DNA of 48,331 nt. It comes from Bacteroidales bacterium UBA2030. Its GTDB lineage: Bacteria; Bacteroidota; Bacteroidia; Bacteroidales; TTA-H9. The DNA lies in the NCBI GenBank assembly GCA_002332755.1, contig DDBO01000035.1:1-48331 (forward strand). The letters are read 5' to 3'. Below are positions 2,941 through 26,773 of this stretch, piece by piece; the stretch's first letter is position 1, and the number at the start of each line of letters is the position of its first letter. The position numbers and the translations under genes were made by a program. The notes under the pieces were generated by a model. It saw only the letters and a list, made by a program, of their open reading frames with translations, was not told where the DNA came from and made no database searches.

Positions 2941-4071
2941 TTACTGAATAAAAAACTTATAAACTGTACGGGTTTTGTATTCCTCGCCGGGACGAAGCAC
3001 AACTGAGGGAAACCAGGGTTTATTAGGACTATCAGGAAAATGCTGGGTTTCGAGGCACAAACCCCAATATTGCTGATAAACGACTTTATATTTCCCTTTC
3101 AAACTGCCATCGAGAAAGTTTCCGGAGTAGAATTGTAGACCGGGTTGATCGGTCCATACCTCCATTGTCCGACCGCTTACCGTATCGGATAAAACTGCAA
3201 CTTTTCTAAATGAATCCACTCCCGTACGCAAAACGAAATTATTGTCGTAGCCAGGCTTTTTATTAAAAACCTTTCGAATGTGCTGACCGATACTTTTAGG
3301 GTTTCGAAAATCGAACGGGGTTCCTTCAACTGGCTTTATATCGCCGGTTGGAATCAAGAGACTATCTACAGGAGTGTAATTATCGGCCATGATTTGAAGT
3401 TTGTGATCGAGAATATCACGCTGCGCATTACCACTCAAATTGAAATAACCATGGTGGGTTAAATTGATTATTGTGGGCTGATCGGTTGTAGCACGATAAT
3501 CAATCCGAAGTTCATTGTCGGTACTCAGGCAATAAGTAACATAAACATCAAGGTTACCCGGATAGCCTTCCTCACCATCAGAGCTTTTATAATGAAGTTC
3601 AAGACAAGGGCCGGATGAATCGATATAGGCTCGGGCATCCCACACCACCTTATCGAACCCTTTAAGGCCTCCATGCAGATGATTGGGGCCGTCGTTGGGT
3701 GTTACATGATACTCTTTACCATCGAGGGTAAATCGAGCCTGTCCAATGCGGTTACCATAGCGGCCCACAATAGCCCCAAAATAAGGTGAATCATTCAGAT
3801 AATCTTTCAAACTGTCGAAGCCCAGGACAATATCCTCAACATTCCCATTTTTATCTTCCATCCAGAGAGACTGAACAATGGCCCCATAGTTGGTTATAGT
3901 GGCTTTCATTCCTCGACCATTGACCAGGGTGAATAATTCCACCTTTTTACCGTCGACACTGCCAAATTCTCTTTGAGTAATCTCCATTTTGGGATAAGTT
4001 TTACAAGCCATAAATGATACGATTATGAAAGTTAAAAAAGCTATAAAGCTCAGAATGTGGATTCTTTTCAT
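2941..4071 (-). CDS. galM: aldose 1-epimerase (galactose mutarotase), exported/lipoprotein-like
   Basis: 376 aa with an N-terminal hydrophobic signal ending in a Cys (IVSFMAC). Mutarotase motifs present: GNRIGQARFTLDGKEY, NHLHGG, THHGYFNL. Confidence 0.85.
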   Translation of the reverse strand: MKRIHILSFIAFLTFIIVSFMACKTYPKMEITQREFGSVDGKKVELFTLVNGRGMKATITNYGAIVQSLWMEDKNGNVEDIVLGFDSLKDYLNDSPYFGAIVGRYGNRIGQARFTLDGKEYHVTPNDGPNHLHGGLKGFDKVVWDARAYIDSSGPCLELHYKSSDGEEGYPGNLDVYVTYCLSTDNELRIDYRATTDQPTIINLTHHGYFNLSGNAQRDILDHKLQIMADNYTPVDSLLIPTGDIKPVEGTPFDFRNPKSIGQHIRKVFNKKPGYDNNFVLRTGVDSFRKVAVLSDTVSGRTMEVWTDQPGLQFYSGNFLDGSLKGKYKVVYQQYWGLCLETQHFPDSPNKPWFPSVVLRPGEEYKTRTVYKFFIQ

Positions 4072-4201
4072 ATGGGCCAGGTTTAAAAATAAGTGGCTAA
4101 ATTTACAAAATTGTAGTTTTTACAATTTGCCCGTAAAATAAAATTATTGCTAACTTGCGGCACATTTATCAAATCACCTAATCGTAAAAGCCACCGCCAT
4201 T

Positions 4202-5899
4202 ATGAAATTTTCAATCATTGATTATGTCATTTTTGCGGCCTACGTTATCACGATCATTGGGGTAGGCCTTTGGGTATCGCGTACACGAAAAGGGACCCAA
4301 AAAACTTCGCAGGATTATTTTCTTGCAAGCAAATCTCTTCCTTGGTGGGCCATTGGGGCTTCGCTTATTGCAGCCAATATCTCAGCAGAACAATTCATTG
4401 GCATGTCAGGGTCAGGTTTTGCTATTGGGTTGGCTATTGCCTCATACGAATGGATGGCTGCCCTCTCACTTATTATTGTGGGCAAATTTTTTCTACCCAT
4501 CTTTATCGAAAAAGGCCTTTACACCATACCCGAATTCATAGAAAAACGCTACAGTACCCAACTTAAATCTATTTTGGCAGTTTTCTGGATTGCCCTTTTC
4601 ATCTTCGTGAATCTTACTTCAGTATTGTTTCTGGGCAGCAAGGCCCTCGATACCATTGTTGGAAATGGGGATGGAAGTCTGATTATGTATTCCATCATTG
4701 GTCTGGCCTTGTTCGCAGCAGCCTATTCTTTATGGGGTGGATTAAGTGCCGTTGCTTGGACCGATGTGATACAGGTGGCTCTTCTGATAGGCGGAGGTTT
4801 GCTTACTACCTTCATTGCCCTGGGGCATGTTTCACCCGATGGAGGCATCATCAGTGGCATCAAACATATATACAATGTAGTCCCTGAAAAATTCTCCATG
4901 ATTATTCAGAAAGGAGAGATTTTTACTCCCAACGGAGAAGATGCCTACAGCTACCTACCGGGGTTGGCAGTTTTATTGGGAGGAATGTGGGTGGCTAACC
5001 TCTATTATTGGGGATTCAATCAGTACATCATTCAGCGCACCCTGGCTGCCAAATCGCTCAACGAAGCCCAACGGGGTATTGTATTTGCCGCATTCCTCAA
5101 ACTCATTATTCCCATCATCGTTGTCATCCCGGGCATCATAGCCTTTGTTATCAATATGGATCCCAGCGGGCATATTACTCAGGGCGTTGCCGATAATACT
5201 TTCTTCAATGCTTTAGGACAAGTAGATAATGATAGGGCTTACCCCTGGCTGGTTAGTCATTTTATACCCACAGGACTCAAGGGGCTGGTAGTTGCAGCTC
5301 TGGTGGCAGCCATAGTATCTTCCTTGGCTTCTATGCTCAACAGTACCAGTACCATCTTCACCATGGACATTTACAAACCCTATTTCTCACCCAAAGCCAG
5401 TGAGGGTGAATTGGTAAAAACCGGCCGTATTACTGCAGCCGTTGCTTTGATAATCGCTATCTTCATGGCGCCGCTATTGGGCAACATCAAGCAGGCTTTC
5501 CAGTACATTCAGGAATATACAGGCATTGTTAGTCCGGGAATTCTGGCCATCTTCCTTATGGGCTTATTCTACCGCAGAGCTACCAACAAATCAGCTATTT
5601 TCGGTGCTCTGTTTAGTATTGTAGTGGCTTTCTACTTCAAAATTGGTCAAAATGGCTGGCTCAGTGGTACATCGCTCGAAAGCCTGTTCCCCAGCCTTCC
5701 CTGGATGGACCAGATGGGATTAACATGCTTGCTCACTATGGCTGTAATTGCTATTTATAGTTACTTCGAAACCAATGGAAAAATCGACGAAAAGGGTATC
5801 GCTCTTACGAAAAAAACCTTTGAAACTGATGCAGTTTTCAATATCACAGCCTCAATTGTGATTTTGATTCTCGTGGCTCTATATGCCATTTTCTGGTAA
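4202..5899 (+). CDS. sodium:solute symporter family (SGLT-like Na+/sugar cotransporter)
   Basis: 565 aa and polytopic, with SSS-family motifs (WWAIGASLIAANISAEQFIGMSG, YNQYIIQRTLAAKS). It is divergent from galM, which suggests a hexose substrate. Confidence 0.85.
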   Translation: MKFSIIDYVIFAAYVITIIGVGLWVSRTRKGTQKTSQDYFLASKSLPWWAIGASLIAANISAEQFIGMSGSGFAIGLAIASYEWMAALSLIIVGKFFLPIFIEKGLYTIPEFIEKRYSTQLKSILAVFWIALFIFVNLTSVLFLGSKALDTIVGNGDGSLIMYSIIGLALFAAAYSLWGGLSAVAWTDVIQVALLIGGGLLTTFIALGHVSPDGGIISGIKHIYNVVPEKFSMIIQKGEIFTPNGEDAYSYLPGLAVLLGGMWVANLYYWGFNQYIIQRTLAAKSLNEAQRGIVFAAFLKLIIPIIVVIPGIIAFVINMDPSGHITQGVADNTFFNALGQVDNDRAYPWLVSHFIPTGLKGLVVAALVAAIVSSLASMLNSTSTIFTMDIYKPYFSPKASEGELVKTGRITAAVALIIAIFMAPLLGNIKQAFQYIQEYTGIVSPGILAIFLMGLFYRRATNKSAIFGALFSIVVAFYFKIGQNGWLSGTSLESLFPSLPWMDQMGLTCLLTMAVIAIYSYFETNGKIDEKGIALTKKTFETDAVFNITASIVILILVALYAIFW

Positions 5900-5921
5900 T
5901 TTTATTTACAAAAACGCTTTG

Positions 5922-6057: not shown

Positions 6058-7578
6058 ATGAAAAGAAAACACTTTACTTTTGCATTACTGGTAGTCATGC
6101 TCTTTTCTTGCCGGCATGAAGAAAATAAACAGACGGAAAACCTTGTGTTGGTAGAAAAACCAGCAATAGTTTTTTATTATCCATCAACGCTTGTGGAGGA
6201 CAGCCTGCAAAGGGCAATGGGGTCTCGGTTTTTCGATCTTCGCGACAGCCTTACACGGTTTAATTCCGAATGGAGACACTATGCTGATTCTAATGGACTG
6301 ATGCAAGTGAACACAACCTCTTATAGGATAATATTTAAGGTTCAGCCAGGGTACGAAGTAAATATTGACACACGCAGATGGGGAGCTCCTTACGGAATCA
6401 TTGTATTTGAAGAAGGTAAAGCCCCTGTAGTGTTGAAGACACAGCGCCCGCCTAAACCCCAGCCGATTGCTACAGAAACCACAGGAAAACCCCAAAAAAT
6501 TGCCAGGAAGCCCAAACAGCCGATGGCTATTCCTTCAACGCAACCATCGGTATCAAAAGCCATCCGCCAACAAGATTCTCTGAATTTTATGAGGCGACTG
6601 AAAGCCAGAATTTCCCATTTATTTGAAAGGAAAACTGAGTTTACCTTCACCCATTCCGAACCAGCTTTTCCGGGGGCTATTAGCCGAAAAAAGGTGGTAA
6701 TACTTGGATTGGAAAACGATATTTTTGCAGGCACCGATATGTGGTATACCAACGGCACCACGGGAGAATGGATAAGTCCGGCCTGGCAGCATTCTCCTCT
6801 GAGCCGTTTACTCCACCCCTCCCGCCAAGCCTCTCTTGATTATTATGGTTTGCAAATCAGGCAAAATCTCTATACAGCCAAATATCCATTTTGGGAAGGA
6901 ATACAATATGGCGACCGGCCCTTTGCTGCCTTTATAACGCTGGGTAACTTTAAAATTTCAAACTTTCCCCAAAAAAGGCTGAGATTGCAATCCTCCATCG
7001 ATATTGGAATTATTGGCCCACACGCCTATGGCGGGCAAGTACAGAAATTCATACACAGTTCAGCCAAAGAGCCTGTTGGGTGGGAAAATCAGATCAGGGA
7101 TGATGTAGTGCTGAAATACACTCTGATGGTAGAAAAGTCATTAACAAACATACCCGGTCATGATATTACGGCTGATGCAGGTATGAATGCAGGTACGCTC
7201 TATAACAATGCTTTTGTTGGCCTGGCTTATCGATTTGCCCGTTTCGACCGTCGCTATAGAGATGATTTGCCTGAAGCGTTTAAACCCAACCTCTGGGGAG
7301 AGGTTTTGCGCAAAACCCAGATAGAGGCATTTGCCCGAACATGGGCAACAGCAGTCTTTTACGATGCCACCCTGCAAGGAGGAATTTTCAATCACTCCAG
7401 TCCCTATACCATTCGCGAAAAAGATCTGAGCCGATATGTTTTGGGCGCAAGTGGCGGGTTATCAGCATCATTCAATGGAATTAGCATTGCTTTTTCGATG
7501 TACATGATAAGCCCAGAGTTTGCAACTTTTCGGCGTTGGCACAAGTGGGGAAGAATAGCCATAGGGCTTTCATTTTAA
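6058..7578 (+). CDS. lipoprotein with C-terminal LpxR-like (lipid A deacylase family, DUF2219) domain
   Basis: Lipobox-like signal (LLVVMLFSC). The N-terminal ~130 aa are unassigned and are followed by a Pro/Lys/Gln-rich linker. The C-terminal ~300 aa start with LENDIFAGTDMWYTNGT, the signature opening of LpxR-family barrels. Confidence 0.55.
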   Translation: MKRKHFTFALLVVMLFSCRHEENKQTENLVLVEKPAIVFYYPSTLVEDSLQRAMGSRFFDLRDSLTRFNSEWRHYADSNGLMQVNTTSYRIIFKVQPGYEVNIDTRRWGAPYGIIVFEEGKAPVVLKTQRPPKPQPIATETTGKPQKIARKPKQPMAIPSTQPSVSKAIRQQDSLNFMRRLKARISHLFERKTEFTFTHSEPAFPGAISRKKVVILGLENDIFAGTDMWYTNGTTGEWISPAWQHSPLSRLLHPSRQASLDYYGLQIRQNLYTAKYPFWEGIQYGDRPFAAFITLGNFKISNFPQKRLRLQSSIDIGIIGPHAYGGQVQKFIHSSAKEPVGWENQIRDDVVLKYTLMVEKSLTNIPGHDITADAGMNAGTLYNNAFVGLAYRFARFDRRYRDDLPEAFKPNLWGEVLRKTQIEAFARTWATAVFYDATLQGGIFNHSSPYTIREKDLSRYVLGASGGLSASFNGISIAFSMYMISPEFATFRRWHKWGRIAIGLSF

Positions 7579-7728: not shown

Positions 7729-9438
7729 ATGCAAACAGAAAATACTCTCATCCAGCTCTTTACATCCTTATATGGACTCCAGTATCAATCATTGATTCGC
7801 GATTTTATCGCAGAATTAAAAGCATTGAAAGGCACCCTCGACATCAAGCCAACGGAAAAAGAATGGTATAAAGATGCCGTGGTATATTCGCTTTATGTTG
7901 ATCTTTTTAATAAAGATTTTCAAGGACTTACCGAAAAACTGGATTACATCCGTTCGTTGGGTGCCAATACCCTCTGGCTTCTCCCCATCCTCGATTCACC
8001 GATGCGGGATGCCGGATTCGATATTCGCGACTATCGTAGCATCAGACGGGAACTTTTTTCTTTGCCGGCCGACACTCCGGCAGAAGATACGCGCAAGTTA
8101 TTCCGCAATTTTCTTGACCAAGCACACGATAAGGGTCTTCGGGTGATTTTCGATATTGCGATGAATCATACCTCGAACGAGCATCCCTGGTTTATAGAGT
8201 CGCGCAAAGGCCCGGAAAATCCGTATCGCGATTATTACATCTGGAATAAAGACACCAACCTATACAAAGAGACCCGATTACTCTTTAAAGGCCTATGCCC
8301 CAGCAACTGGGAGTATGATAATGGATGGTACTTTTTCCACCGCTTTTATGAATTTCAACCAGACCTCAACTATCGTAATCCCAAGGTGTTGATTGAAATA
8401 AGCCGAATACTTGTCTTCTGGCTTAGTCAGGGAGTGGATGGATTCAGAGCCGATGCAATTCCTTTTATCTGGAAAGAAGATGGGACAGATTGCGAAAATC
8501 TTCCACAAACCCATACGATTGTAAAATTTTTTAGGGCAGTTCTCGATTTCTTAAGGCCAGGAACACTCTTGTTGGCTGAAGCCTGTCAACCCCCCAAAGA
8601 AGTTGTAAAATACTTCGGAGAAGGAGATGAATGTCATGCAGGCTATCATTTTCCGCTCATGCCTCAGATTTTCATCAGCGTGGCAATGGCCGATGCCCGT
8701 CCTGTACAGCAAGTGCTCAGTGCCGAAGTAACTCCTTCCATTCCACCATCCTGCCAATGGTTTACATTTTTAAGGCTGCATGATGAATTAACCTTGGAAA
8801 TGGTAACCCCGGACGAACGCGACATTATGAATAGCCATTACAGGCACGATATACGGTGGAATTTTCGTGAAGGAGAAGGCATTTCCGCCCGGTTGGCCGA
8901 ACTGTTTAAATTCGATGCACAACGTATTTTACAGGCCTATAGTATAATGTTAACCCTGCCCGGTACTCCGGTAATTTATTACGGCGATGAATTGGGCAAA
9001 GGCAACGACGAGGCATGGTTCGATTATATGACCCAAATTACCGGCCATCCCGATAGCCGTTTTTATGTAAGAGGCCCTATCGATTGGCAATGGGTGAAAG
9101 ATCAACTCGCTAATCCTGAATCATTTACATGCAAAATGTTCAATGGCCTAAGCCAGATGCTCAAAATAAGGAACACACATAGCCTTTTTGGACACGGAAT
9201 TCTATGCTGGGAAACGCCCTTAGAAAATCTCCCCAATCATGTTCTAGCCTGGCGAAGGATTTATAATGGACAAGAAATGCTTGCAATTCATAACCTTTCA
9301 AATCAACCAGTGAACATCACTTTAAAAAGTAGTTCCTGTAGCTGGCAACCAGGTTTTTCGATGGGGATGAATGAGACAGAAAAAGAAATCCTTACCTTTG
9401 AACCTCATGGATTTGCCTGGTTATTTAATATCTTATGA
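7729..9438 (+). CDS. GH13 alpha-amylase-family enzyme (trehalose synthase / amylosucrase-like)
   Basis: WYKDAVVYSLYVDLF...GLTEKLDYIRSLGANTLWLLPI...DAGFDIRDY, NHTSNEHPWF, GVDGFRADAI and the LHDELTLE conserved regions of GH13. No signal peptide. Confidence 0.85.
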   Translation: MQTENTLIQLFTSLYGLQYQSLIRDFIAELKALKGTLDIKPTEKEWYKDAVVYSLYVDLFNKDFQGLTEKLDYIRSLGANTLWLLPILDSPMRDAGFDIRDYRSIRRELFSLPADTPAEDTRKLFRNFLDQAHDKGLRVIFDIAMNHTSNEHPWFIESRKGPENPYRDYYIWNKDTNLYKETRLLFKGLCPSNWEYDNGWYFFHRFYEFQPDLNYRNPKVLIEISRILVFWLSQGVDGFRADAIPFIWKEDGTDCENLPQTHTIVKFFRAVLDFLRPGTLLLAEACQPPKEVVKYFGEGDECHAGYHFPLMPQIFISVAMADARPVQQVLSAEVTPSIPPSCQWFTFLRLHDELTLEMVTPDERDIMNSHYRHDIRWNFREGEGISARLAELFKFDAQRILQAYSIMLTLPGTPVIYYGDELGKGNDEAWFDYMTQITGHPDSRFYVRGPIDWQWVKDQLANPESFTCKMFNGLSQMLKIRNTHSLFGHGILCWETPLENLPNHVLAWRRIYNGQEMLAIHNLSNQPVNITLKSSSCSWQPGFSMGMNETEKEILTFEPHGFAWLFNIL

Positions 9439-10724
9439 TTAACCCCGATACCGCCTGGTACCCCTCACCCATGGATTGCAATGGGACTTTCTCTGAAGAA
9501 GAGCAAACCTCACTTGAACTTTTTCGCCAGAGATTACTGCGATGTCGCAAAGTAGAAGAAGCTTTGGATGTAGTGTGGTCTTCCACTGAAGGTATAATCC
9601 CACGTGACCGCATCGGTCTTTCTTTTCTTTCGCCCGACGGAGAGACTTTGACTGCTGCTTATTATATCACCGACTACCAGCCTGTACTTCTCACCCATAA
9701 TTACTCTGCCGGGATAAGTTCATCCACATTGTCGCTTCTTATTGAGGAGAGAAGTATTCGCATTATTAATAATCTCGAGACTTATCTGAAATTTCATCCT
9801 CGATCAAGCAGCACGCGATTACTCGTTGAAGAGGGCGTCAGGTCTAATCTTTCTTTGCCTCTGCAGGTTGATAACAGAAATGTTGGCTTCCTTTTCTTTA
9901 GTTCACGCCAAAAGGAATCTTTCACCACGCATCATGCATGCCTGCTCAGGGCATTGCTCGATGAAATGTCAGCACTGATTGAAAAAGCATGGATGATAGA
10001 CCAGCTGAGCAAGGCCAGAAAAGATTATTTGACCATGCTTGGTTTTGTAGCTCATGAACTTAAAGCCCCATTGGCCACTATGACTACAATGGGTCACATG
10101 TACCTTGATGGTTATTTCGGCCCTCAGGACAAAGCCGGAATCGATACCATTAGCAAAATGCTGAAAATATCAGGGTACATGATTAACATGATTCAAAATT
10201 ACCTGGGTCTGTCACAGTTGGAAACCGGAGAAATGCGATTCAAACCCCAAGAGGGCGTAAAATTCAGAGAAGATGTGCTCGACTTCGTGATTAACACACT
10301 GGATGCAAGAATACGCGAACGCAATGCCCAAATAAAAATCGAAGGCTCTGACGAAATAACCCTTGAAGCCGATCCGGATTTACTTCGCATTGTCTTCACC
10401 AATCTGGTAGATAATGCAGTGAAATATGGCGAAGAAAATGGCGAGATCAATATTCATTACCAGACCGATAATCAAAAACTTACCTTTAAAATCCGTAATA
10501 CAGGGGTAGGATTTACGCCTGAACAGGCATCTCAACTGTTTAAAAGATTCAGCAGGCTCCACCAAAAAGGGCTGGAAGACAGGAAAGGAACAGGATTGGG
10601 ACTTTACCTCACATGGTGGATTATTCAGAAACATAGAGGGCATATATCGGCTTCGTCAGAACCAGGTAAATGGGCGGAATTTTATGTCGAATTGCCTTTG
10701 ACACAAACACAATCCATTAACTAA
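9435..10724 (+). CDS. soluble GAF-domain sensor histidine kinase
   Basis: No TM segments. N-terminal GAF-like region, H-box FVAHELKAPL, N-box DNAVKYG, G-box GTGLGLYL. The start overlaps the GH13 stop (ATGA at 9435-9438). Confidence 0.85.
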   Translation: MINPDTAWYPSPMDCNGTFSEEEQTSLELFRQRLLRCRKVEEALDVVWSSTEGIIPRDRIGLSFLSPDGETLTAAYYITDYQPVLLTHNYSAGISSSTLSLLIEERSIRIINNLETYLKFHPRSSSTRLLVEEGVRSNLSLPLQVDNRNVGFLFFSSRQKESFTTHHACLLRALLDEMSALIEKAWMIDQLSKARKDYLTMLGFVAHELKAPLATMTTMGHMYLDGYFGPQDKAGIDTISKMLKISGYMINMIQNYLGLSQLETGEMRFKPQEGVKFREDVLDFVINTLDARIRERNAQIKIEGSDEITLEADPDLLRIVFTNLVDNAVKYGEENGEINIHYQTDNQKLTFKIRNTGVGFTPEQASQLFKRFSRLHQKGLEDRKGTGLGLYLTWWIIQKHRGHISASSEPGKWAEFYVELPLTQTQSIN

Positions 10725-12099: not shown

Positions 12100-13368
12100 A
12101 TGAACGAGCAGTTTCTTTATTATATCTGGCAATATCATCTTCAAGGCAGAACACTCGCATCCGTTACCGGTGAGGAAATAGTAATTATTAAACCAGGATA
12201 TCGAAATAATGATGCCGGGCCTGACTATACTGAAGCCCTGGTGAAAGTTGGTACGGAAGTTTGGGCAGGGAATCTTGAAATTCACTTAAAAACCTCCGAC
12301 TGGTATAAACATCATCATGAATCTGATAAGCAATATTCGAGCCTGATTTTACATGTTGTTTACGAAAACGATTTGCCGGGACGTGAACCCACCAGTTGTC
12401 CTACCCTTGTATTAAAACCATATGTGGATACCCGGCTTTGGCAGGTTTATCAGGGATTCCTGCTCTCACAGGATTGGATTCCATGTGCAAGGGGTTTCAA
12501 TAAAGTTTTTCCTGTGGTAGTTCACTCGATGCTCGAACGAGCCATGATTGAACGCATGGAGCGAAAAGTCGGAGAAATACAGCGTTTGCTCAATATCACA
12601 CGAAACAACCTGCATGAATGCTTCTATATTGCCATGGCCCGCGCCTTTGGGCAAAAAACCAATGCACAGGCCTTTGAAATTCTTGCCAGAACTACACCAT
12701 TAAATATACTTGCCCGTTACTCCCATTCTTTTTTCCAAGTCGAGGCACTCCTTTTTGGCCAATCAGGTTTGATTTCAGAAAAACACGTGGATGAATACCA
12801 CGATCGTCTGTACGCGGAATACAAATTTTTGAAAGAAAAGCACCATTTGGTGGCAGCCTTACATATTCCCTGGAAATTCATGCGCATGCATCCCCAGGGA
12901 TTTCCCACAGTGCGCCTGGCACAATTTGCAGCCCTTATACATCAATCCTCCGGGCTGTTGCAGAAGTTATTAAACAGTCGGGATGTACAAGAAATGCAAA
13001 AAATGCTTTCCTGCCAGGCTTCGGAATACTGGAATACACATTATCGTTTTGGCGAAACAAGTGCCCCCAGAACCAAGTCGACAGGGAACGATTTTATTAA
13101 TAACATCATTATTAACGCCGTAATACCTTTTCAGTGGATCGACGCAAGGATGCGCGGAGATGAATCAGGTCCCGAACAGGCACTAAGATTGCTCTATGAG
13201 CTTCCGCCAGAAAATAATTCCATTGTAAGAGGTTGGGCCAAGCTGGGCTATAATGCCAGAGACGCTTTTGCCAGCCAATCTCTTTTGGAATTAAAAAATC
13301 GTTACTGCACCTTCCGACGCTGCCTCGATTGCAAAATAGGTCATTCTTTGTTAAAAATGCAGGTTTAG
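12100..13368 (+). CDS. DUF2851 family protein
   Basis: The N-terminus MNEQFLYYIWQY..., the size (422 aa) and the C-terminal CxxCxxC..C (CTFRRCLDC) pattern match the conserved Bacteroidota DUF2851 family, recognised from memory. Confidence 0.6.
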   Translation: MNEQFLYYIWQYHLQGRTLASVTGEEIVIIKPGYRNNDAGPDYTEALVKVGTEVWAGNLEIHLKTSDWYKHHHESDKQYSSLILHVVYENDLPGREPTSCPTLVLKPYVDTRLWQVYQGFLLSQDWIPCARGFNKVFPVVVHSMLERAMIERMERKVGEIQRLLNITRNNLHECFYIAMARAFGQKTNAQAFEILARTTPLNILARYSHSFFQVEALLFGQSGLISEKHVDEYHDRLYAEYKFLKEKHHLVAALHIPWKFMRMHPQGFPTVRLAQFAALIHQSSGLLQKLLNSRDVQEMQKMLSCQASEYWNTHYRFGETSAPRTKSTGNDFINNIIINAVIPFQWIDARMRGDESGPEQALRLLYELPPENNSIVRGWAKLGYNARDAFASQSLLELKNRYCTFRRCLDCKIGHSLLKMQV

Positions 13369-22956: not shown

Positions 22957-23352
22957 TTAAAAAGGCAGGTCGTCGTCGATGGGAGCAGGATTAGAAGGGG
23001 ATGCATCAGGCTGAGCAATAGGAGGCCGTTCAGAAAGGTAATATTGTTCAGTTGGAGGTGCAATGGGAGCGGATGCACCTGAAACTTTTGTTATTTCGTA
23101 AGCTCTAACGTCGGTGTACCAGCGTTCATTATATTCCCGAGATTCTATACTAAAGCTTATTTTCAACTCATCCCCCGGAGTTAGCTCCTTCAAAATTTCT
23201 GTGCGCTCATTCCAAGCAATCAGGCAAATTTTTTTAGGATAAGTTTCTATCGTCTCTATAATGAAGCTCTGTTTTTTCCAGTTTCCGCGAGCGCTGGTTC
23301 CACTCTGGGGCTCCAATACTTTCACCAGTTTTCCGTTAATTGTGTGATCCAT
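22957..23352 (-). CDS. DUF3127 protein with SSB-like C-terminal tail
   Basis: N-terminal ~88 aa (GKLVKVLEPQSGTSARGNWKKQSFIIET...ERWYTDVRAYEI) match the DUF3127 family from memory. These are followed by a Pro/Ala/Gln-rich low-complexity linker and a terminal DDDLPF. Confidence 0.7.
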   Translation of the reverse strand: MDHTINGKLVKVLEPQSGTSARGNWKKQSFIIETIETYPKKICLIAWNERTEILKELTPGDELKISFSIESREYNERWYTDVRAYEITKVSGASAPIAPPTEQYYLSERPPIAQPDASPSNPAPIDDDLPF

Positions 23353-23366
23353 AAAACAATAAAAAA

Positions 23367-23840
23367 TTAATAAGCAATTTTATTTTCAGATTCGTTCCAA
23401 ACCCGGAATGGGGCATTAGCATTTTCAATTTTAACATGAACAAAAGGAATGTTACGGTCTAAATGAGGTTTTCCAATCTCCTGGTAAATAAAGCTATCGT
23501 CGAAACCGGCGGCGGCTGCTTCATCTTGTGTAGCAGCATAATATACCTTGCGAATACGAGCCCAATAAATTGCACCCAGGCACATTGGGCAGGGTTCACA
23601 ACTGGTATAAAGCTCGCAATCGTCGAGTTGGAAAGTATTTAGCTTTCGGCATGCTTCTCGGATTGCATTCACTTCGGCATGGGCCGTCGGGTCGTTGCTG
23701 GATGTAACAGAGTTAGCTGTCGCGGCTAATATTTGGCCATTTCTAACGATTAGGGCGGCAAAAGGACCTCCACGCCCTCTCTTTACATTGTCCTGCGCCA
23801 TTTCTATGGTAAGGCTCAAATACTTTGATGCGTTTTCCAT
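23367..23840 (-). CDS. guaD: guanine deaminase (CDA-fold nucleoside deaminase)
   Basis: 157 aa with HAEVNAIREA and CEPCPMCLGAIYWA zinc motifs. GFDDSFIYQEI and the C-terminal segment closely parallel Bacillus-type GuaD rather than TadA. Confidence 0.75.
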   Translation of the reverse strand: MENASKYLSLTIEMAQDNVKRGRGGPFAALIVRNGQILAATANSVTSSNDPTAHAEVNAIREACRKLNTFQLDDCELYTSCEPCPMCLGAIYWARIRKVYYAATQDEAAAAGFDDSFIYQEIGKPHLDRNIPFVHVKIENANAPFRVWNESENKIAY

Positions 23841-23910: not shown

Positions 23911-24618
23911 TTATTTACCCTGAATTTCCTGAAAATATTTTGTCCATTTCCCTTTAATTGTGGGCCATTGCAAAGCGCTTTGCAACACTTTCAAAAATTC
24001 AGCTCTGGGAATGGTTTCAGCCCCAAGACTAAGTAAATGCTCCGTTTTCATCTGCGCATCAATAAAGAGAAAGCCGTGGTGAAGGGCAAATTGCACCAGG
24101 TAATAAAAAGCCACCTTGCTTGCATCGGTCATGTGATGAAACATACTCTCTCCAAAAAAAGCTTTTCCCAGGCTAACGCCATATAATCCACCAACCAGCT
24201 TGCCTTCGAACCAGGTCTCAAAACTGTGAGCATATCCTGCCTTATGAAAAGATGTGTAAGCCTTTTCAACCTCCGATGTAATCCAGGTTCCGGTCTGATC
24301 TTTGCGCGGAGTAACCCTGCAGGCATTTATTACCTGCGGAAAAACCGTATCAACGGTCACCTGAAATTTGTTTTTCCTTAAGGTTTGACGTAAGCTATGC
24401 GATAGTTTGAACTTTTCCGGTATAAGCAAAGTTCGTGGGTCAGGCGACCACCACATGATAGGCTCCCCCTCAGTGTACCAGGGGAAAAGTCCGGAGCTGT
24501 ATGCCGACAGCAAACTTTTAATGCTAAGATTACCACCAATGCCCACCAAGCCAGCTTCCTCGGCTTGTTTGGATATTAGCATGCCTTCATATTCAGGATC
24601 AAATGCAATGATTGCCAT
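23911..24618 (-). CDS. aat: leucyl/phenylalanyl-tRNA--protein transferase
   Basis: LFPWY...PIMWWSPDPR...GTWIT...AHSFETW..GKLVGGLYGVSLGKAFFGESMF are hallmark Aat blocks. Confidence 0.9.
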   Translation of the reverse strand: MAIIAFDPEYEGMLISKQAEEAGLVGIGGNLSIKSLLSAYSSGLFPWYTEGEPIMWWSPDPRTLLIPEKFKLSHSLRQTLRKNKFQVTVDTVFPQVINACRVTPRKDQTGTWITSEVEKAYTSFHKAGYAHSFETWFEGKLVGGLYGVSLGKAFFGESMFHHMTDASKVAFYYLVQFALHHGFLFIDAQMKTEHLLSLGAETIPRAEFLKVLQSALQWPTIKGKWTKYFQEIQGK

Positions 24619-26243
24619 TACTCACTAACAAAAATTTTTTTTGAATAACTACCCTTAGAGCTTATTACCTGAGCAAAATACCAACCCCGTGCCAAATGTT
24701 GAAGAGGAAACATGGGTTTATTCAGGTCTTTACTCCTGAAAACCTCTCTGCCATTGATATCAATAACTCTAACCATCTGTATAATTTCACCTTCTGATGG
24801 ATGGAAAAGCAGGCAAAATTTTCCATCCATTAAAATTATTTTAAATTCTGAAAAAGGTTTTTCTGGTATTCCCAAGGGGTCAGTCATCAAGGTAAATTGG
24901 TGCACAATTTCGGGTGCCATAGCGGGATCATTTACGTGGCCAAAGGTATCGGCTGCGTAAATATAGTATTGAACCGTATCTCCAGGGCTAAGCCCATTTA
25001 TCGTACCGTAATATTTACCCATTTGTAATTGCATAGCAATGCTCGTAAATTCCTGACTAGGCAATATGCGATAAAACAATACCACCGAGTCAGGGTTATT
25101 TTCCGCTTGTACCAGGCACGTTATGGTCTTGAAGGGCTCAAAAATTTGTTCACCTTTCAGTGCAGCATGAAGAATTCTTAAAAACTGAGGTTTGCATATC
25201 TCCCGGGTAATACAATGAATAGCCCCATATAAAGGGGTTAATGTGCGGGCATCAACCATTTTAATTTGATACCCAGGCATATTCCTTTCGTAGATAGCTT
25301 TGGCAGTGTCATCCAATGGATGGTTATATTTGGGAACCACAACCACCCCATTGGTAGTCAGTGAATTCGTATATGTGCGCATTTCGTCGTTGAGGGTAGT
25401 GGTATAAGTTCCATCTTCTTTGGGAGGGGCAGGAATACGAACAATTTTATAAGGTATTCCCAACGGATTTGACATTTGAGAAAGCTGCTGTGCGATACCT
25501 TCGATGATTGGATAGTCGGGTAAATAATCGGGATAACTGGAAATAAGTATTGTTTGATTGTCAATCATTTTCATAAACATGTCCACATGCATCCATATTC
25601 CTCCGCCACTATTTTCCAATACATCAATAAAATGAAAATCATTCAGTCCAAAATAGCTGAGAAAAAGACTTTTTACCTGTGACTGTGTAAGCGTTGGATT
25701 TTGGGTAAAAATGCGTTTGCTGCCAAATCCTGCACCAGTGCCGTCAAGAATTACATTACCCCCTTCAACCTCAAGGGGGAATTGCACCACCGGGATACCC
25801 CATTGACGACCCAATTGAGCCGGAATTGAATCGTCTTTCGGACGATTATATTTGCTGTAACGGGCATCTAAAAAAAATCTCTCCCAATGCTCACCATTGA
25901 ATCTATAACCTGAAAACGGACCATAATCGCGAATCCACAGGGTTTCAGTCCAACCGGGTACAAATTTTACATTATGATAACCCACGCCGTGAAGAAGAAG
26001 ATATGTGCGAATGTATGTAGTATCATAAGGTGCCGGTCCGGGATAATAAATTATCCATACCGTACTAACATCCTGCAAGGAATGGGCAATATTGGCCACC
26101 ACCGAATCACGCGAAGGTGCATAATCCCAGGTAAGTAATACCCCTTCATTATATTCAAACTCAGCAGGAAATGCTCGTGTCTGTGCAGGCAATTGACTTA
26201 TAAAACAATAAAGTAATATGTACAAATAAATGAATTTTCTCAT
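24618..26243 (-). CDS. secreted agmatine deiminase / Porphyromonas-type peptidylarginine deiminase family protein with T9SS C-terminal sorting domain
   Basis: I place the start at the ATG at 26243 (MRKFIYLYILLYCFISQLPAQ signal peptide) rather than the track start at 26345. PAD_porph-type core ending in the catalytic-Cys block YGAIHCITREI, then an Ig-like region and a ~80-aa C-terminus (..ARGWYFAQVISSKGSYSKKIFVSE) typical of type A T9SS CTDs. Confidence 0.75.
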   Translation of the reverse strand: MRKFIYLYILLYCFISQLPAQTRAFPAEFEYNEGVLLTWDYAPSRDSVVANIAHSLQDVSTVWIIYYPGPAPYDTTYIRTYLLLHGVGYHNVKFVPGWTETLWIRDYGPFSGYRFNGEHWERFFLDARYSKYNRPKDDSIPAQLGRQWGIPVVQFPLEVEGGNVILDGTGAGFGSKRIFTQNPTLTQSQVKSLFLSYFGLNDFHFIDVLENSGGGIWMHVDMFMKMIDNQTILISSYPDYLPDYPIIEGIAQQLSQMSNPLGIPYKIVRIPAPPKEDGTYTTTLNDEMRTYTNSLTTNGVVVVPKYNHPLDDTAKAIYERNMPGYQIKMVDARTLTPLYGAIHCITREICKPQFLRILHAALKGEQIFEPFKTITCLVQAENNPDSVVLFYRILPSQEFTSIAMQLQMGKYYGTINGLSPGDTVQYYIYAADTFGHVNDPAMAPEIVHQFTLMTDPLGIPEKPFSEFKIILMDGKFCLLFHPSEGEIIQMVRVIDINGREVFRSKDLNKPMFPLQHLARGWYFAQVISSKGSYSKKIFVSE

Positions 26244-26512
26244 CCCGATTAATTGTATTAGTTCCACCCAGAAATAAACCTTTATTTCACACTTTTCAAT
26301 GTCGCAAGTTAATATTTTAATGCCACGTAAAAAAGATACCGACAAGTAATTTTATAATGCCTTCATCAGCCAGTATTGCCAGAATTCTGTAGAATTTGTA
26401 AGAATGCATAATTTTGAGATGAAAAATGCATCAAACAGATTTATGAAACTAATGAAAAATCAATAAGGAATTATTGATATTTGCATTAATTATAAAACTA
26501 ATTCGGTCTAAT

Positions 26513-26773
26513 ATGAAAATGGACAAACTTTGTCAAAGCTGCGGTCTCCCTTTGGAAAAAGATCCACTAAAAGGCGGCACCCATGTTGATGGAAGCCAAA
26601 ACCCGAAATATTGCAGCTATTGTTACCAAAATGGAGAATTCACCTTTAAAGGCACTGTGAAGGAATTTCAAGCTTTCGTCATGCAAAAAATGCGAGAGCA
26701 AGGCCATTCTTGGTTAAAAGCATGGCTGCTTACCCGAAGTATCCCCTACTACGAAAGATGGAAAAAGAATTGA
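26513..26773 (+). CDS. putative zinc-ribbon domain protein
   Basis: The track ORF starts at a TTG; the ATG at 26513 gives MKMDKLCQSCGLPL...KYCSYCYQNGEFT (CxxC...CxxC). Confidence 0.6.
   Translation: MKMDKLCQSCGLPLEKDPLKGGTHVDGSQNPKYCSYCYQNGEFTFKGTVKEFQAFVMQKMREQGHSWLKAWLLTRSIPYYERWKKN

Follow-up and report, generated by a model that had tools for sequence, protein, structure and literature searches.

The locus studied here raises the question of whether a small protein of the DUF3127 family, which ends in the hexapeptide DDDLPF, is an SSB (a protein that binds single-stranded DNA [ssDNA]) in its own right. Its gene lies on contig DDBO01000035.1 of Bacteroidales bacterium UBA2030, and we refer to the whole 48,331-nucleotide (nt) stretch that was analyzed as the window. 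A preliminary description, made from the sequence alone, had divided the 131-amino-acid (aa) protein into a compact N-terminal domain, a low-complexity linker, and an acidic tip, and had suggested that this family uses or competes for the interaction hub formed by the C terminus of bacterial SSBs (SSB-Ct). The results below indicate that DUF3127 is probably a genuine minimal SSB using the SSB-Ct hub. The gene and its parts are located as follows.

22957 to 23352, minus strand: complete coding sequence of the DUF3127 (mini-SSB) protein, 131 aa, stop codon at 22957 to 22959 (open reading frame [ORF] list, Pfam PF11325, and PHROGs phrog_4932)
23086 to 23352, minus strand: predicted oligonucleotide/oligosaccharide-binding (OB)-fold domain, residues 1 to 89 (AlphaFold2, Foldseek, hhalign, and conservation)
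22978 to 23085, minus strand: disordered linker rich in Pro, Ala, Ser, and Gln, residues 90 to 125 (low AlphaFold2 confidence and hypervariability in the family)
22960 to 22977, minus strand: C-terminal tip DDDLPF, residues 126 to 131, a putative SSB-Ct-like docking motif (conservation in the family and identity to canonical SSBs)

The ORF, whose translation ends in NPAPIDDDLPF, and the Pfam match bear out the three-part layout, and the 34-aa linker string of the preliminary description corresponds exactly to residues 92 to 125. Residues 5 to 87 align with positions 2 to 84 of the 85-position PF11325 (DUF3127) model at 100.6 bits (E = 5.9e-29), which is above the gathering score of 27 bits and places the protein in the family. 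The PHROGs family phrog_4932, named "single strand DNA binding protein," matches residues 4 to 131 over positions 2 to 117 of 117 (E = 4.2e-19). NCBIfam had no model for the protein. The family had been called uncharacterized, which holds for the literature, as we found no paper characterizing it; it does not hold for annotation, since phage members already carry an SSB label in PHROGs and RefSeq. That label is a computational one, and cellular members are still listed as DUF3127 in Pfam and NCBI. An anti-phage defense reading was dropped because no defense-system family in PADLOC matched the protein; the adjoining deaminase gave only a weak match to a dCTPase domain.

To what fold does the conserved domain belong? 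AlphaFold2, run with a 37-sequence alignment, modeled residues 1 to 90 at a predicted local distance difference test (pLDDT) score of 89 to 96, with strands at residues 4 to 12, 16 to 20, 23 to 34, and 41 to 47, a helix at 49 to 56, and strands at 62 to 74 and 77 to 89. As modeled, residues 1 to 89 adopt the OB topology b1-b2-b3-helix-b4-b5 known from SSB and PriB, and both the L23 loop and the L45 loop are short. The conserved residues of the domain are W25, K27, Y38, P39, W47, G60, and the motif ESREYNERWYT from E70 to T80. When the model was compared with the PDB using Foldseek, ranks 1 to 47 were exclusively bacterial SSBs or PriB (E values of 1e-5 to 1e-3; target-normalized TM-scores of 0.5 to 0.7). 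The SSBs came from Mycobacterium, Bacillus (SsbA), Staphylococcus (SsbB), Thermus, Deinococcus, Streptomyces, Salinibacter, and Fervidobacterium. Against the predicted viral structures in BFVD, viral DUF3127 proteins ranked first, followed by viral SSBs. The OB fold for which the preliminary description had proposed to test the N-terminal domain is thus borne out by structure prediction.

Profile-profile comparison pointed the same way. An hhalign comparison of DUF3127 with an alignment of E. coli SSB and tail-less Bacteroidota SSBs gave a probability of 88% over 51 columns, and a more diverse DUF3127 alignment, to which phage and Flavobacterium-type members had been added, gave 91% (E = 1.1e-6) over 64 columns, pairing DUF3127 residues 26 to 89 with E. 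coli SSB residues 29 to 112. Because only the E. coli row of the template has a tail and the aligned columns fall within the OB domain, the shared tip is not the source of the score. Residues W40, W54, F60, and W88 of E. coli SSB stack on ssDNA. The alignment-based equivalences are Y38 with W40, W47 with F60, Y74 with W88, and R72 with R86 (DUF3127 residue first). Relative to E. coli SSB, DUF3127 has a 10-residue deletion in the L23 loop, which removes W54, and most members have a 5-residue deletion in L45. Flavobacterium-type members retain a longer L45 loop with the sequence RGREWxNPQGExKYFNS, visibly like the canonical RxWxxxDGxxKYxTE, and several database proteins match both PF11325 and PF00436, the Pfam family of canonical SSBs; a published phage SSB is likewise reported to match the two domains. 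Judged from these profiles and the predicted structure, DUF3127 is a divergent, minimized branch of the SSB superfamily.

The C-terminal tip is shared across the family. Of the 222 open frames in the window that are 60 aa or longer, only 2 have a C terminus of the form [LIM]PF. Across the family, 248 of 269 DUF3127 homologues end in [LIM]PF, and, position by position, the final five residues of these 248 tails are D (82%), D (92%), L (96%), P (100%), and F (100%), with only weakly acidic positions upstream. The DDDLPF ending of the window protein is not due to chance. Conserved acidic residues before LPF are expected for SSB-Ct docking. All of the 120 homologues listed from a search of 5.8 billion proteins match PF11325; 62 end in DDDLPF and nearly all of the others in xDDLPF. 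A profile search of 1.84 billion cluster representatives returned 9,048 proteins at E ≤ 1e-3 and 4,317 at E ≤ 1e-10; among the best 149 of these, 130 have an [LIM]PF end, and most of the others seem truncated or frameshifted. We also scanned one genome per GTDB species and confirmed at least 598 DUF3127 relatives; all counts of genomic loci given here refer to the best 80 of them. Seventy-nine of the 80 copies have an [LIM]PF end, and the sole exception runs off its contig. The conservation of the tip that the preliminary description had proposed to examine therefore extends to cellular and, as described below, phage members.

The linker behaves in the opposite way. It is hypervariable and cannot be aligned across the family (median, 33 aa; range, 0 to 155 aa), its composition is dominated by A (14%), P (14%), S (12%), and Q (8%), with T and G also frequent, and residues 91 to 131 of the window protein were modeled at a pLDDT of about 60 with no secondary structure. 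Such a combination, in which a freely varying spacer separates a conserved domain from a fixed peptide at the C terminus, is the hallmark of a short linear motif on a tether. The disordered linker and acidic [IL]PF tip that mark PF00436-type proteins are both present in the window protein. Rare tandem proteins (P0121, P0122, and P0161) carry two OB domains followed by one linker and a DDLPF tip; other tandem forms (P0140 and P0185) have no tip.

How does this tip compare with that of the main SSB in the same phylum? The SSBs of Flavobacterium psychrophilum and Psychroflexus torquis are ssDNA-binding homotetramers, which, according to the cloning primers, end in NDLPF and DDLPF, respectively (PMC3991886). 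We sampled further canonical SSBs by scanning metagenome contigs with a degenerate pattern derived from the N terminus of an SSB from that study. This yielded 116 SSBs, the complete ones being 136 to 157 aa long. Of the 111 with a complete C terminus, 65 end in NDLPF and 16 in DDLPF, and most of the rest are near variants; weakly acidic tips (GGVPF, DVVPF, GGAPF, and GDVPF) occur in 10 of the 116. A protein search seeded with one metagenomic SSB returned 120 SSBs, many of them from named Flavobacteriaceae genera, and 117 of these end in DDLPF. The canonical SSBs sampled from Bacteroidota and DUF3127 thus have an identical tip, so the likeness to an SSB tip noted in the preliminary description is an identity with SSBs of the same phylum.

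Evidence that the two proteins coexist comes from three cases in which both genes lie on one contig (10-kb flanks of DUF3127 loci). On the first (L258), a canonical ssb gene (149 aa, ending in NDDLPF) is followed by gldE and gldD, and a DUF3127 gene (ending in HDDLPF) lies about 10 kb away among ordinary metabolic genes. The adjoining gldE and gldD identify this ssb as the housekeeping locus of a Flavobacterium-like genome. The second contig (L237) carries a canonical SSB at 1563 on the plus strand and DUF3127 at 9211 to 9648 on the minus strand. On the third (L042), from Chitinophagales, the DUF3127 gene is 2.5 kb from a tail-less canonical SSB (7207 to 7545, plus strand). Since both genes are on one molecule, DUF3127 is an additional tip-bearing protein and not a replacement for SSB, at least in Flavobacteriia.

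Canonical SSBs themselves vary at the C terminus. The SSB on L237 ends in a weakly acidic QKDVVPF and the DUF3127 protein on the same contig in EEDDLPF; with degenerate SSB tips of this type, the DUF3127 tip is nearer the consensus than the SSB tip in some lineages. Chitinophagales and Sphingobacteriia have a large family of tail-less canonical SSBs (PF00436), in which all of the best 120 matches (P0270 to P0389) are without linker or tip, and all but six are 102 to 116 aa long. In a Lacibacter genome, the gene for such an SSB is directly upstream of one for an 825-aa PIF1/AAA_30/HRDC helicase, and a gene of this tail-less family lies at 10001 to 10345 of L084/L085.

Phage members provide a second line of evidence. 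Using tblastn, we found the family in 82 phage records, and wherever a host or organism was named, it belonged to Bacteroidota (Flavobacterium, Polaribacter, Cellulophaga, Bacteroides, Phocaeicola, and Maribacter). The gene is labeled "single strand DNA binding protein" in RefSeq and pharokka-style annotation, whereas the original GenBank records have "hypothetical" or "DUF3127." In Cellulophaga phage phi10:1, a YqaJ-type exonuclease gene is followed by the DUF3127 gene and then by a NinG/Rap nuclease and a primase/helicase; in Flavobacterium phage Fpv5, the DUF3127 gene lies between a replication initiator plus RusA and the DNA polymerase. Three phage DUF3127 proteins end in SDLPF, DDLPF, and DDLPF. 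A canonical-SSB profile was run against all of the Fpv5 genome and against 50 of the 53.7 kb of phi10:1, and it matched neither. DUF3127 is the only SSB-like gene in the sequence examined from these two phages, and its copies appear to be their sole SSBs.

The broader viral data fit this picture. DUF3127 relatives were found on 158 IMG/VR contigs. In 80 IMG/VR contigs, 79 copies were complete, of which about 68 ended in x[LIM]PF; none of the copies had a canonical SSB within 6 kb. Recurrent neighbors were primase/helicase (10 loci), primosomal or initiator proteins (9 loci), RecE/YqaJ exonuclease (9 loci), and Holliday-junction resolvase (7 loci). Phage copies are thus placed where an SSB is expected, and no other indirect evidence speaks more strongly for ssDNA binding having been retained by the fold. 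Five viral proteins, encoded by L105, L101, and other IMG/VR loci, consist of the OB domain alone (ORFs of 84 to 89 aa) and have no linker or tip. A phage primase/helicase (phrog_239) encoded beside DUF3127 at 4028 to 5902 (plus strand) of L137 ends in DRSPLPF, an LPF end preceded by no acidic residues.

Chromosomal copies have a different setting. The best 80 genomic loci are almost all from Bacteroidota (Bacteroidales, Cytophagales, Flavobacteriales, Chitinophagales, and Sphingobacteriales), with one from Balneolia; the few labeled as other phyla are probably misbinned contigs. We clustered the four genes on each side of the 80 loci, and the most recurrent neighbor was a signal-peptide-bearing protein (14 loci). 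Two genes of the window lie upstream of the DUF3127 gene on the same strand.

23367 to 23840, minus strand: guanine deaminase with a CDA fold, directly upstream of DUF3127 (PDB 1wkq and 1tiy; Pfam dCMP_cyt_deam_1)
23911 to 24618, minus strand: Leu/Phe-tRNA protein transferase gene aat (Pfam PF03588, E = 9.7e-74), likely the first gene of the transcription unit

The deaminase, 14 nt upstream of the DUF3127 start codon as the preliminary description had it, is a genuine guanine deaminase, matching the Bacillus subtilis GuaD structures 1wkq and 1tiy over its full length at E values of about 1e-56 (1.6e-56 for 1wkq). The adjacency is real, but it offers no functional clue: a guanine deaminase is found beside DUF3127 in 2 of the 80 loci, and the order aat, guanine deaminase, DUF3127, class IV aminotransferase, and PPK2 is shared only by the window and its two closest relatives among the 80 (L001 and L002). 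A partnership in nucleotide metabolism was dropped because the deaminase link is local synteny. An aat gene also lies 1.8 kb from DUF3127 on L258 (5416 to 6051, plus strand). Only 2 of the 80 genomic loci have aat close to DUF3127; the proximity may be left over from an older gene order or be fortuitous.

The rest of the window neighborhood is of the housekeeping kind (a PAD-type deiminase, sensor kinases, aminotransferases, and TerC). Other genes nearby encode a 575-aa protein like Porphyromonas-type peptidyl-arginine/agmatine deiminases (24618 to 26345, minus strand), a DUF2851 protein (12100 to 13368, plus strand), and a small Zn_ribbon_2 protein (26474 to 26773, plus strand). The window has no Rfam matches and no tRNA genes. 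With this context, no phage genes, and a GC content of 0.44 in the DUF3127 gene against a window average of 0.43, we dropped a prophage or island reading of the window. The chromosomal copy appears to be vertically inherited.

The organism was found in anaerobic-digester and sludge metagenomes, and the DUF3127 gene is present in metatranscriptome contigs. In one run (X37), a single RNA contig covering 22828 to 24642 spans aat, the deaminase, and DUF3127 at a depth of 60, and the downstream aminotransferase and PPK2 genes are on contigs at a depth of 3 to 6, contig depth being a crude measure. This suggests a three-gene aat-guaD-DUF3127 transcript that ends about 130 nt past the DUF3127 stop codon. 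The deaminase and DUF3127 are probably cotranscribed without a functional link.

On our best reading, then, DUF3127 is a second, tip-bearing SSB of Bacteroidota. The OB face would bind ssDNA through the conserved aromatics Y38, W47, and Y74, with W25, W78, and Y79 and the basic residues K27, R72, and R77 probably contributing. The flexible tail would offer the DDLPF tip to the genome maintenance partners of canonical SSB, candidates being RecQ, RecJ, PriA, RecO, RecG, Ung, topoisomerase III, and primase. The protein could in this way bring partner enzymes to ssDNA or share them with the main SSB. Since it coexists with a canonical SSB, a specialized or backup role is more probable than that of a bulk ssDNA coat.

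Several results weigh against this reading. Besides PF11325, no Pfam family matches the 131-aa protein at E ≤ 0.01, and this includes PF00436. Sequence and family-profile searches of the PDB gave only a marginal match to an archaeal RPA-related OB protein (E = 0.1 to 0.2), which was too weak for use and made structure prediction necessary. Neither W54 nor the tetramer residue H55 of E. coli SSB has a counterpart in DUF3127 in the hhalign alignment, and the OB domain is about neutral in charge (13 K/R versus 14 D/E). The 80 genomic loci show no conserved partner and no recurring DNA metabolism gene among the neighbors, so that context favors no particular pathway. We came across no canonical SSB from the organism of the window or from its order. 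The literature yielded no paper showing ssDNA binding or docking by DUF3127/PF11325; one paper names DUF3127, but there it is no more than a secondary match in CDD for a canonical phage SSB. Nothing relevant was found on SSB paralogues of Bacteroidetes, and the ETfinder paper is silent on Bacteroidota.

The missing W54 and shortened L23 loop, together with the neutral charge, would also fit a protein whose OB domain no longer binds ssDNA and which acts as a decoy or regulator, titrating or handing over SSB partners through its identical DDLPF tip. A tip that is the same as that of the phylum's canonical SSB, with both proteins encoded on one contig, agrees with such a role, and the invariant ESREYNERWYT motif is conserved beyond what generic DNA binding needs, which hints at a specific protein contact. 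We nevertheless regard this as quite unlikely: phage members sit at sites that require an SSB, with no other SSB-like gene found in Fpv5 or in the phi10:1 sequence examined, three of the four stacking residues of E. coli SSB have aromatic counterparts in the alignment, and a pure decoy has no use for a conserved OB barrel. The fold search, in which PriB structures score equal to SSBs, raises instead the idea of a PriB-like adaptor for replication restart, a small SSB-derived OB protein that works with PriA, itself a binder of SSB tips, and replaces PriB/DnaT or DnaD-type factors. We know of no such restart factors described for Bacteroidota, and the family is restricted to a single phylum, in which it is common (at least 598 genomic matches and 4,317 clusters at E ≤ 1e-10). 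This too strikes us as improbable, because DUF3127 has kept a linker and tip that PriB lacks, because no priA, dnaB, or rpsF-rpsR linkage was seen in the 80 loci (nor were there rpsF/rpsR or priA neighbors in the window), and because phage copies, like ordinary phage SSBs, are found next to genes for exonuclease and primase.

The abundance of relatives close in structure and sequence among phages that infect these hosts (82 phage records and 158 IMG/VR contigs) and the resemblance of Flavobacterium chromosomal copies to the Fpv phage type could mean that the gene is a domesticated or remnant phage SSB, left over from a Bacteroidota phage replication module and without a role in the host. The window, with housekeeping genes only and a GC content in the gene equal to that of its neighbors, argues against this, as do the local synteny common to the two closest related loci, the transcription of the gene, and the 40 to 55% identity and invariant motif across Bacteroidota orders, which imply long purifying selection; we consider such a relic very unlikely. 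Equally little speaks for an LPF end that serves mainly as a ClpXP degron setting the protein level and not as a docking site. In some Streptococcus mutans strains, SsbA and SsbB need no more than their C-terminal LPF to undergo ClpXP-dependent degradation, but the effect is strain specific, is absent in E. coli and other streptococci, and was not reproduced in vitro (PMC5143411). LPF alone would suffice for a degron, yet the preceding Asp residues are conserved (92% at position -4 and 82% at position -5), which favors docking.

A different division of roles, which we hold to be unlikely but less so than the alternatives above, is that DUF3127 serves not as a spare SSB but as the protein in which the SSB hub is conserved in parts of the phylum. 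The tail-less canonical SSBs of Chitinophagales and the degenerate DVVPF tip on L237 leave room for it, as DUF3127 retains DDLPF beside a tail-less SSB on L042 and beside the degenerate tip on L237. The protein would then be an adaptor through which partners such as PriA, RecQ, and RecO reach ssDNA, with labor split between DNA-coating and partner-recruiting OB proteins, or it would be a PriB-like restart factor with its own tip.

As a probable minimal SSB, DUF3127 shares with canonical SSBs (PF00436; e.g., those of E. coli and F. psychrophilum) the OB fold, the disordered linker, and the acidic [LI]PF tip, as well as best structural matches, profile-profile homology, and alignment-based aromatic counterparts of W40, F60, and W88. 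It differs in an OB domain of 89 instead of about 110 residues, an L23 loop about 10 residues shorter (no W54), an L45 loop about 5 residues shorter in most members, the lack of a conserved H55, its invisibility to the PF00436 model, and coexistence in place of replacement. We therefore see it as a variant of the SSB kind and not a plain member, given the failed PF00436 match and the markedly smaller OB domain. The phrog_4932 members (Cellulophaga phi10:1 gp021, Flavobacterium Fpv5 gp31, and Bacteroides LoVEphage) are of the same family and have the same OB-linker-DDLPF layout. Unlike these phage copies, which are part of replication and recombination modules, the window copy has a chromosomal location amid metabolic genes and falls in the cellular clade with the invariant ESREYNERWYT motif.

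PriB is likewise a small SSB-derived OB protein with similar fold-search scores, but it has neither the disordered linker nor the acidic tip of the window protein. PriB is proteobacterial and is encoded in an rpsF-priB-rpsR operon. The SSB paralogues SsbB of Bacillus and Streptococcus, SsbC of Staphylococcus, and SsbB of Streptomyces resemble DUF3127 in being an extra, smaller SSB beside the essential one, and S. mutans SsbB also ends in LPF (PMC5143411). These paralogues are clear PF00436 members, often linked to competence or sporulation, whereas DUF3127 is separate, far more divergent, and restricted to Bacteroidota and relatives. In Deinococcus-Thermus, the two-OB SSBs recall the rare tandem DUF3127 proteins P0121, P0122, and P0161 but differ from the window protein, which has one OB domain.

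SSB is the organizing hub of bacterial replication, repair, and recombination, and its tip attracts work both as a target for drugs and as a handle for recombineering. Many Bacteroidota, among them gut Bacteroidales and fish-pathogenic Flavobacterium, encode a second, minimal carrier of this tip, as do their phages, so that the SSB hub has at least two entry points in the phylum. Characterization of DUF3127 would give a function to a large family (more than 4,000 clusters at 50% identity, E ≤ 1e-10) and would define the smallest known SSB-type OB domain with a working tail. It would also bear on the competition between phage and host for host repair enzymes and be of use in the design of recombineering tools for Bacteroidota, where matching of the SSB tip counts.

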